Assembly (NCBI GenBank): GCA_038883335.1
Contig: JAVZMI010000001.1
Coordinates: 51,696-115,695 of the forward strand
Length of the DNA: 64,000 bases
Direction: 5' to 3'
From: Candidatus Bathyarchaeia archaeon
Lineage (GTDB): Archaea > Thermoproteota > Bathyarchaeia > Hecatellales > Hecatellaceae
Part shown: piece after piece, positions 30,767-50,125 of the stretch
How the letters are laid out: each line of letters opens with the position of its first letter
Numbering within the stretch: position 1 is the stretch's first letter
The notes under the pieces: generated by a model
What the model saw: only the letters and a program-made list of their open reading frames with translations
Databases searched by the model: none
What the model was told of the DNA's origin: nothing
Translations under genes and position numbers: made by a program

Positions 30767-30966
30767 GGATGCATAGCGAAAATCCCAACAAAGGGAATTG
30801 AAACTGTTGTAGACCCTGAAATTAAGACGCTCTACCGAAACTACGGATGCATAGCGAAAATCCCAACAAAGGGAATTGAAACTTTTAAATAAGCTTCAAT
30901 TGCGGTGTTTTGGCTCATTATCGCGGGGGGATGCATAGCGAAAATCCCAACAAAGGGAATTGAAAG
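30767..30966 (+). CRISPR. Orphan CRISPR mini-array with three 38-nt repeats (GGATGCATAGCGAAAATCCCAACAAAGGGAATTGAAAC) and two spacers (40 and 46 nt)
   Basis: The repeats lie at 30767-30804, 30845-30882 and 30929-30966. The last repeat ends G instead of C. The repeat ends in ATTGAAAC, the typical 8-nt 5' handle of Cas6-processed crRNA. No cas genes occur in the window. Confidence 0.6.
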
Positions 30967-31038
30967 ATATGGGAAAGGTTTAACCGTGAATTACACGCTA
31001 AAAAGCTTTATATTGCGATATTGTTCTTCGTTTTTTGT

Positions 31039-31210
31039 CCCGCGGTAGCTCAGCCTGGAAGAGCTTCCGATCCTCGTGAAATAGCTGGGGAGGAGATGCT
31101 GTAGAGTTTGCCCGACGGGTAGACCCACCAGCCTTCCAGGCCAACAGAAACCGGAGTGTCGCAGGCTCAAAACTTCCACCGCGAAGGTGAGAATCCTGCC
31201 CGCGGGACCA
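31039..31210 (+). tRNA. Intron-containing tRNA gene (pre-tRNA about 172 nt), identity unresolved
   Basis: The 5' end carries acceptor stem CCCGCGG, then U8A9 and the D-arm GCUC-AGCCUGGAA-GAGC. The 3' end carries ...GCAGG...CCUGC-CCGCGGG-A-CCA, a 7-bp acceptor complement with an encoded CCA. About 95 nt of extra sequence lies between the halves, probably one intron in the anticodon region and one in the T-loop. The anticodon could not be assigned by eye. Confidence 0.5.
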
Positions 31211-49982: not shown

Positions 49983-50125
49983 GCCCCGGTCAAGCCTCGG
50001 TTCCCTCGGTGAAGGGTGAGAGAGCGCAGCATGGTTGGCGCGTGGCCTTGGTAAAATATTAAAGCAAATTGATTGCACCTACAAAAAGGCTAAGGTCGCG
50101 GGTTCAAATCCCGCCCGGGGCTCCA
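49983..50125 (+). tRNA. tRNA-Thr(GGU) with two introns: a non-canonical one near positions 8/9 (about 32 nt, 49991-50022) and a canonical 37/38 intron (33 nt, 50054-50086)
   Basis: The deduced mature tRNA is GCCCCGG-UA-GCGC-AGCAUGGUUG-GCGC-G-UGGCC-UUGGUAA-GGCUA-AGGUC-GCGGG-UUCAAAU-CCCGC-CCGGGGC-U-CCA. The acceptor has 7 bp, and the D, anticodon (U33, GGU, A37) and T arms are canonical. The discriminator is U and the CCA is encoded. Confidence 0.75.

Follow-up and report, generated by a model that had tools for sequence, protein, structure and literature searches.

The stretch of DNA analysed here (the window) comprises 64,000 nucleotides of contig JAVZMI010000001.1 (positions 51,696–115,695 of the forward strand, assembly GCA_038883335.1) of a Candidatus Bathyarchaeia archaeon. 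Its plus-strand positions 31039–31210 very probably constitute a tRNA-Tyr(GUA) gene, encoding a precursor of about 172 nt with three introns of the type removed by the splicing endonuclease EndA together with an RNA ligase; taken as a whole, this is the best explanation of the locus. The introns are located at tRNA positions 30/31 (28 nt), 37/38 (45 nt) and 59/60 (22 nt). A segment of the second intron is complementary to the D-loop of the same precursor, and sequence comparison indicates that this pairing is not a chance match: most of the related Thermoproteota tRNA-Tyr genes compared maintain it, with compensatory changes. We tentatively propose, at somewhat less than even confidence, that pre-tRNA-Tyr of Thermoproteota (Nitrososphaeria including Caldarchaeales, Bathyarchaeia and Brockarchaeota) contains a previously undescribed, conserved D-loop:intron helix, which would be pseudoknotted with the splice motif, accompanied by pairing of a CAGC sequence with G31–G34, and would sequester the D-loop until the last intron is removed. 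Several lineages would build on this fold, with up to four introns.

The four exons are colinear within 172 nt (Table 1). The layout is CCCGCGG UA GCUC AGCCUGGAA GAGC U UCCG, the 28-nt intron, G CUGUAG, the 45-nt intron, A CCGGA GUGUC GCAGG CUCAAA, the 22-nt intron, and U CCUGC CCGCGGG A CCA. As all exons are in order, a split or permuted tRNA is ruled out. An earlier model reading of the letters alone (the first-pass annotation) had described a canonical D-arm, acceptor complement and encoded CCA, separated by about 95 extra nucleotides, and all of these are present: the D-arm spans 31048–31064 (GCTC/AGCCTGGAA/GAGC), the acceptor strands are CCCGCGG (31039–31045) and CCGCGGG (31200–31206), the latter followed by A73 and CCA (31207–31210), and the extra sequence amounts to exactly 95 nt (172 − 77 = 28 + 45 + 22). 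The predicted junctions of the spliced product read GCUUCCG/GCUGUAG, CUGUAG/ACCGGA and GGCUCAAA/UCCUGC. The first-pass annotation had tied its intron reading to a set of splice motifs giving a cloverleaf of 72–78 nt, and the three excisions give one of 77 nt. This product is a class-I cloverleaf with an acceptor stem of 7 bp, a D stem of 4 bp and anticodon and T stems of 5 bp each, loops of 7 nt and a variable loop of 5 nt, with standard pairs throughout the stems.

With default thresholds, ARAGORN identifies the in-silico spliced 77-mer as tRNA-Tyr(gta); when only introns 1 and 3 are removed, it returns Tyr with a 45-nt intron at position 37. The anticodon loop is C32 U33 G34 U35 A36 G37 A38, with GUA placed between U33 and purine 37, and the anticodon, previously called unassignable, can be read as soon as the introns are taken out. 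C1 (31039) pairs with G72 (31206) and is accompanied by A73 (31207) and the encoded CCA. C1-G72 and A73 form the tyrosine identity set of archaeal and eukaryal tyrosyl-tRNA synthetases, so the 5'-terminal C is to be expected and is not odd.

Splice motifs were scanned for as a central 4-bp helix (H) flanked by 3-nt bulges on opposite strands (B1 and B2; bulge-helix-bulge, BHB), with an outer helix (h) and an inner helix (h') on either side. The cut was placed after the second bulge base, the rule for the canonical BHB motif, and cutting two bases into the bulge at all three motifs leads to the cloverleaf. The multiple or non-canonical introns suspected earlier are three motif-defined introns, two of them at non-canonical positions (30/31 and 59/60). 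The scan finds two strict motifs in the gene, those of introns 1 and 3, with four of four pairs in H, bulges of 3 nt, outer helices of 2 and 5 bp and inner helices of 6 and 4 bp, respectively. In intron 1, H is formed by CUUC (31064–31067) and GGAG (31092–31095), with bulges CGA (B1, 31068–31070) and AUG (B2, 31096–31098); the outer helix consists of A23-U33 and G24-C32 (31062–31063 with 31099–31100) and the inner helix of 31071–31076 paired with 31086–31091. Its removal joins UCCG to G and creates the stem strand UCCGG, followed by the loop CUGUAGA; the 3' strand CCGGA lies 45 nt further on. The first-pass annotation had correctly seen that the anticodon stem finds no partner after a 7-nt loop and that a further interruption must lie there, which is made up of the two introns at 30/31 and 37/38, but its stem strand TCCGA is really TCCG joined to G, with the partner CCGGA at 31151–31155.

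In intron 3, H is formed by CUCA (31166–31169) and UGAG (31188–31191), with bulges AAA (B1, 31170–31172) and AAU (B2, 31192–31194). The outer helix is the 5-bp T-stem and the inner helix CUUC/GAAG (31173–31176 with 31183–31186) has one extra G. The T-loop intron that had been suspected from the split T-stem is therefore this 22-nt strict-BHB intron at 59/60, the 29-nt gap between GCAGG (31161–31165) and CCTGC (31195–31199) being the sum of the 7-nt loop and the intron. By the reading made here, intron 2 has a relaxed motif only, of the hBH or bulge-helix-loop (BHL) kind. Its H is CUGU (31099–31102; positions 32–35) with ACAG (31144–31147), and its bulges are AGA (31103–31105) and AAA (31148–31150). 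The outer helix is the anticodon stem, of which the 5' strand is contiguous only once intron 1 is gone, and there is no h': an 8-bp hairpin within the intron (31106–31124) begins right after B1. As an A is present at both ends, the boundary of intron 2 is ambiguous by one base rightward.

Table 1. Elements of the tRNA-Tyr locus, in order along the window
Feature	Coordinates	Strand	Content	Basis
Candidate archaeal TATA box	31007–31014	+	TTTATATT, with A-rich stretch resembling a transcription factor B recognition element (BRE) upstream	Read from sequence
Exon 1 (tRNA 1–30)	31039–31069	+	Acceptor 5' strand CCCGCGG, U8 A9, D-arm, U26, anticodon-stem 5' strand UCCG	
D-loop strand G15–G22	31053–31061	+	GCCTGGAAG / GCCUGGAAG	Complementarity, folding, covariation
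Intron 1 (30/31)	31070–31097	+	28 nt, strict hBHBh'	BHB scan
Exon 2	31098–31104	+	G31 C32 U33 G34 U35 A36 G37: last 5' base of anticodon stem and anticodon loop, GUA	
Intron 2 (37/38, canonical)	31105–31149	+	45 nt, relaxed motif	Worked out by hand
Conserved CAGCC	31129–31133	+	5' of the 9-mer with one-base overlap; complementary to G30-G31-C32-U33-G34	
Intron-2 strand	31133–31141	+	CTTCCAGGC / CUUCCAGGC	Complementary to G15–G22
Exon 3	31150–31171	+	A38, CCGGA, variable loop GUGUC, GCAGG, T-loop C54 U55 C56 A57 A58 A59	
Intron 3 (59/60)	31172–31193	+	22 nt, strict BHB	BHB scan
Exon 4	31194–31210	+	U60, CCUGC, CCGCGGG, A73, encoded CCA	

That standard finders would miss the gene had been anticipated. 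ARAGORN with default settings detects no tRNA anywhere in the window. At the locus, the Rfam tRNA model gives no match, either at the gathering score or at E ≤ 10; two weak Rfam snoRNA matches there are on the minus strand and far below threshold. The sole automatic call at the locus comes from relaxed ARAGORN (-ps90), which reports tRNA-Asp(gtc) at [31039,31210], i(30,89), that is, with a single 89-nt intron. The probability that the gene is such a tRNA-Asp(GUC) is negligible. The same run made 15 other calls, 16 in all, which are mostly noise, nearly all of the others having introns of hundreds to thousands of nucleotides. In this call, the GTC corresponds to the last three bases of the variable loop GUGUC, the 89-nt excision fits no BHB, C1-G72 is a feature of tyrosine and not of aspartate, and the orthologues described below keep CTGTAG as the anticodon loop. 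The BHB scan, the spliced product and the orthologues together refute the aspartate reading.

For comparison, one genome per species was scanned with the first 26 nt of the gene, leaving one D-loop position free, which yielded at least 120 loci from Nitrososphaeria (including Caldarchaeales and Conexivisphaerales), Bathyarchaeia and Brockarchaeota. All 120 genome matches listed are tRNA-Tyr genes with at least one intron. A metagenome scan for genes with C or G at position 20 of the D-loop gave 14 matches, which are also intron-containing tRNA-Tyr genes. Exon 1 is identical or near-identical in more than 130 orthologues and CTGTAG is invariant. Default ARAGORN detects none of 117 orthologues, and its intron mode detects the 34 with a single intron and no others. 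The canonical intron has all four pairs of the central helix and all five of the anticodon stem in 111 of the 117 orthologues audited. An intron at 30/31 was found in 22 orthologues by the audit, and locus L059, unparsed there, carries one too. In the 22, H is CUUC with GGAG or GAAG, B1 is CGA and B2 is A(C/U)G, while the introns are 18–65 nt long and show no sequence relationship among their inner hairpins. Four Bathyarchaeia loci (L095, L099, L114 and L115) have a strict BHB at 59/60, each with a different h', together with the three-intron layout of the window gene; visual inspection indicates a BHB at 59/60 in L047 and L064 from Brockarchaeota as well. As the positions are common to orthologues across classes, they look vertically inherited.

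Sixteen orthologues were compared in sequence with the window gene. Their spliced products, 74 nt to the discriminator, are 88–97% identical to that of the window, while their introns are only 41–78% identical. Conserved exons combined with drifting introns are the signature of a functional gene with introns under structural constraint. The closest relative among the matches listed is L049, from a Bathyarchaeota metagenome-assembled genome (MAG), which is 77% identical over a blastn alignment that begins at 30998 and spans the promoter region.

Some features of the locus weigh against a functional three-intron gene. The mature T-loop, CUCAAAU, would open with C54 (window position 31166) in place of U54, which is near-universal there. 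No oligo-T terminator is found 3' of the gene. The 5' splice site of intron 2, without h', lies outside a classical 3-nt bulge, and a broad-specificity (alpha-beta)2 or epsilon2 endonuclease is required for these introns. Finally, loosely defined hBHBh' motifs occur about 2.1 times per 172 nt in this DNA; since they are so common, the presence of a motif alone was not used, and weight was placed on the exact positions, the product and the orthologues. The unusual C54 would also suit a decayed tRNA pseudogene with insertions that are no longer spliced, the functional tRNA-Tyr being encoded elsewhere in the genome; the contig extends to at least 207 kb, of which the window covers 64 kb, and a second copy may lie outside the window. 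We consider a pseudogene very unlikely. The exons are perfect, all stems pair and the identity elements are intact; the three insertions all have splice motifs in the correct register, and a promoter-like TATA box is present at the expected distance. The interrupted form is the only type of tRNA-Tyr in more than 130 related genomes and contigs compared, and the drift of the introns is accompanied by compensatory changes, at 88–97% exon identity. A functional tRNA-Tyr(GUA) gene is the reading retained here.

T-loops and intron numbers vary further among the orthologues. C54 also occurs at about 60 Nitrososphaerales loci and in L121 and L129. In the comparison set it is seen only in genes with a T-loop intron, the genes without one having UUCAAAU, and U54 is retained by some Bathyarchaeia and Brockarchaeota genes that have a T-loop intron. 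The T-loop insertion of Nitrososphaerales (for example L010) is about 28–32 nt long, CUCAAAC...GGGGCAAAU, and does not form a strict BHB at 59/60: after the strand complementary to CUCA, 6 nt are bulged, not 3 nt, and the splice point is ambiguous through a CAAA direct repeat. Four introns (30/31, 37/38, 53/54 and 59/60) appear to be present in tRNA-Tyr genes of about 196–209 nt, namely L015, L061, L097 and L105 from Bathyarchaeia MAGs and L123, L124, L127 and L131–L134 from metagenome contigs. Removal of the four insertions from L015, L097, L123 and L124 gives a 77-nt product that default ARAGORN calls tRNA-Tyr.

The 9-bp complementarity between the D-loop and the insert, pointed out in the first-pass annotation, is exact and of Watson-Crick type, and the helix is part of the minimum-free-energy fold (about −15.5 kcal/mol as a duplex). 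Allowing G-U pairs, nine of nine pairs can be formed in 113 of 131 genes (104/121 in the genome set), a result reached in 1.3% of trials with permuted D-loop 9-mers. The D-loop position left free in the genome scan covaries with its intron partner without exception (A:U in 7 genes, U:A in 99 and U:G in 15; n = 121). From this, genes with C20 were predicted to have a G in the intron, and genes with G20 a C or U; in the metagenome scan a G was found opposite C20: the D-loops GCUUGGCAG pair with CUGUCAAGC, CUGCCAAGC or CUGUCGAGC at nine of nine positions, with the double changes C20:G and U17:A occurring together, and in two further matches GCCUGGCAG and CUGUUCAGGC form 9 bp with one bulged base, again with G opposite C20. 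In an alignment of 77 distinct constructs, each joining a D-arm to its intron segment (693 cells), standard pairs occupy 96.8% of the cells, versus 17–51% when the partner is slid by 1–3 columns. Double-sided changes are found in 17 cells, a number reached by none of 500 shuffles, with compensatory changes at two pairs, and RNAalifold recovers the helix unaided.

A chance origin of the complementarity, or an inverted repeat acting at the DNA level without a role in the RNA, has next to no probability. A single 9-bp match within 172 nt may be expected by chance with a probability of a few percent, but the match is conserved across Thermoproteota classes, double compensatory changes occur at two positions and the predicted state was found; conservation and covariation thus refute chance. 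Wobble pairs among the variants take the form G-U on the sense strand alone, which places the constraint at the RNA level; in DNA or on the complementary strand, many of these variants would give A-C mismatches. As a small control, about nine other tRNAs with introns from the fetched loci were compared, together with a tRNA-Thr of the window (see below). Their complementarity is at background (4–7 of 9), and within the limits of this control the element appears to be specific to tRNA-Tyr. An alternative pairing of the intron with itself, a GCCU-NNN-AGGC hairpin, was rejected: the first base of its "loop" changes in step with position 20 of the D-loop, and the two bases after it, which face G18 and G19, are pyrimidines in every case.

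The sequence CAGC(C) just 5' of the 9-mer is kept in 111 of 127 orthologues. It is complementary to G31-C32-U33-G34, an invariant exon partner, and pairs with GCUG in the minimum-free-energy fold. Plain RNAfold misses the splice-competent fold, pairing GCUG with CAGC instead, because the intron-2 motif is pseudoknotted with the D-loop helix. In the canonical introns of Nitrososphaerales, a conserved CGUGAA(A/G)C is located just 5' of the CAGCC element.

A conserved antisense element of 9 bp in a tRNA intron resembles, in outline, the euryarchaeal pre-tRNA-Trp, the intron of which is a box C/D guide that pairs with its own exon and targets positions 34 and 39. Excised archaeal introns can be stable circles. 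By analogy, intron 2 might be a guide RNA, of box C/D or H/ACA-like type, with the 9-mer guiding modification of the D-loop in its own precursor or of other RNAs after excision. As in pre-tRNA-Trp, an intron segment pairs with an exon of its own precursor and would have a role other than to be excised; unlike it, the window intron has no C/D boxes, and its 9-mer targets the D-loop and is not known to guide any modification. In box C/D guides of the pre-tRNA-Trp type, RUGAUGA and CUGA boxes make up a kink-turn and the guide stops 5 nt upstream of box D or D'. Direct reading of 31105–31149 reveals no RUGAUGA or CUGA box and no kink-turn; there is no plus-strand Rfam match at E ≤ 10, and the distance from the 9-mer to any box-like element downstream is not conserved (spacer of 0–10 nt or more). 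The D-loop of the tRNA-Thr of the window, GCAUGGUUG, differs and is not complementary to the 9-mer. C/D boxes, a kink-turn or an H/ACA-like layout could be fitted neither in intron 2 nor in the longer Nitrososphaerales introns. The ACA beside the 9-mer is accounted for by its pairing with U33-G34-U35. A guide function is, on balance, highly improbable.

Our favoured interpretation is that the D-loop:intron helix serves as a scaffold within the same molecule for ordered splicing and as a gate for folding. In the primary transcript, the D-arm would be unfolded and the D-loop held by intron 2 through the 9 bp. The 3' strand of the D-stem would take part in the intron-1 motif, A23 and G24 in its outer helix and C25–C28 in H, and nucleotides 15–29 would form one continuous stack of 15 bp. 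A nested conformer with the full intron-1 BHB and the D-loop helix is calculated at −57.8 kcal/mol, versus −42.2 kcal/mol for the cloverleaf-framed fold. Introns 1 and 3 would be cut first, intron 3 independently. Intron 1 would precede intron 2 because its outer helix borrows C32 and U33, which the intron-2 motif needs, and because the anticodon stem stays interrupted until intron 1 has been removed. The joining of G30 to G31 would complete the anticodon stem, the outer helix of the intron-2 motif. Excision of intron 2 would then take the 9-mer away and set G15–G22 free to form the D-arm, with G18 and G19 docking on the finished T-loop.

Should this hold, the archaeosine site G15 and the elbow residues G18 and G19 would be hidden until the final intron is removed, and a widely retained tRNA intron would gain a structural job, be it in the order of splicing or in gating folding and the modification of D-loop or anticodon. 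A role in timing the modification of the D-loop or the anticodon (archaeosine 15, pseudouridine 35) is equally open. Some observations count against the scaffold. The 9-mer is separated from the central helix by a spacer of variable length (0–10 nt or more), which weakens a strict model of the D-loop helix as substitute for h'. The D-loop helix, anticodon stem and central helix together make a pseudoknot (in the order D-loop, anticodon-stem 5' strand, 9-mer, 3' strand of H). In L125 (metagenome contig Ga0256833_1027000), with D-loop GUCUGGCAG and a canonical intron of 42 nt, the best complement is 4–5 bp and the element is missing. As a comparative result the covarying helix is solid; its function would be of the kind described. 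In the literature searched, of which Marck & Grosjean 2003 and Sugahara 2007 were not part, no description of a D-loop:intron pairing was found.

Multi-intron tRNA genes of Thermoproteales and Crenarchaeota were reportedly described by Sugahara et al. in 2007 and 2008. Both the type of gene and the intron positions are already documented in archaea: Thermoproteales are the main home of multi-intron tRNA genes, known non-canonical positions include 30/31 and 59/60, and the maximum is three introns per archaeal tRNA gene (PMC4090602, PMC4033280). Like those of Thermoproteales, the window gene has small BHB-type introns at canonical and non-canonical sites, is missed by finders and needs a broad-specificity EndA. 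It differs in its host, a member of Bathyarchaeia, and in intron positions that look inherited, versus the recent intron transposition proposed for Thermoproteales. The tRNA-Tyr(GUA) of Thermofilum pendens is permuted, with its halves joined at 59/60, and has a canonical intron too (Chan et al. 2011, PMC3218864). It has in common with the window gene the isoacceptor, a BHB junction at 59/60, the 37/38 intron and the encoded CCA, but its halves are circularly permuted, whereas the window gene is colinear with an ordinary intron at 59/60.

The canonical intron of pre-tRNA-Tyr from Cenarchaeum symbiosum, a member of a related phylum, has served as a BHL substrate that is cut only by a broad-specificity EndA (Hirata et al. 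2011, PMC3241643). It resembles intron 2 of the window in occupying the canonical tRNA-Tyr site and in having a 5' splice site without an inner helix. That study employed a mini-helix without D-arm, in which a D-loop pairing would be invisible, and the passages searched mention none (PMC3241643). In eukaryotes, the pre-tRNA-Tyr intron is needed for pseudouridine 35. It is linked to 1-methyladenosine 58 in PMC12168002, in which the passages searched describe no D-loop pairing. Like the eukaryotic intron, that of the window would be important to the maturation of other parts of the molecule. The endonuclease of eukaryotes takes its measure from the mature domain, whereas the archaeal enzyme reads the BHB. 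To our knowledge, no other tRNA intron is as widely conserved as that of tRNA-Tyr, which is almost universal. Why tRNA introns persist, especially that of tRNA-Tyr, is an old question, to which a phylum-wide covarying intron-exon helix adds a hypothesis that can be tested by mutation: the intron would shape the precursor and control when the D-loop becomes available.

The tRNA-Tyr gene would, judging from the candidate box in Table 1, be driven by a TATA-type promoter. The centre of this box lies about 29 nt upstream of the mature 5' end, near the lower end of the 30–49 nt that separate promoter and mature 5' end in T. pendens tRNA genes (PMC3218864). Directly upstream of the promoter, at 30767–30965 (+), there is a small array resembling clustered regularly interspaced short palindromic repeats (CRISPR), in which two spacers, 41 and 47 nt long, separate three identical copies of a 37-nt repeat, GGATGCATAGCGAAAATCCCAACAAAGGGAATTGAAA. 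The window contains no further copy of the repeat. The six neighbouring open reading frames scanned include no cas gene, EndA or RtcB. The neighbours are ordinary archaeal chromosomal genes (DegT-type aminotransferase, HAD hydrolase, Hel308-type helicase and MCM). The MCM matches a protein from a Candidatus Bathyarchaeia MAG, on a contig of 207 kb, at 100% identity, which places the source in Bathyarchaeia. The next relatives of the MCM are 81–82% identical and those of Hecatellales about 66%; the contigs of two MCM relatives, at 81% and 78% identity, both stop short of the tRNA. An exact-sequence look-up of the HAD protein returned no match.

A second intron-containing tRNA, most likely tRNA-Thr(GGU), is located at 49994–50125 (+). 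Its exon GCCUCGGU precedes a 21-nt intron at 8/9 with a strict BHB (about 50002–50022); the D-arm GCGC/AGCAUGGUUG/GCGC comes next, and after it a 33-nt insertion at or near 37/38, which has a relaxed motif only. The T-arm is normal, residue 73 is U and CCA is encoded; after the first excision, ARAGORN reports a 78-nt tRNA. An Rfam match at 50045–50122 (30.3 bits) is a mis-framed partial match to the 3' half of this gene. The tRNA-Thr intron contains no complement to its own D-loop. Tyrosine decoding here depends on a gene invisible to ARAGORN and the Rfam tRNA model, and with two hidden tRNAs in one window, MAGs of this kind will seem to lack tRNAs if they are annotated with tools that are not BHB-aware. 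The sequence GCCCCGG (49983–49989, +), 11 nt upstream of the 5' end of the tRNA-Thr, is a perfect complement of the acceptor 3' strand CCGGGGC, with which the real 5' strand GCCUCGG pairs with one G-U; it may reflect leader-trailer pairing or be the remnant of a duplication.

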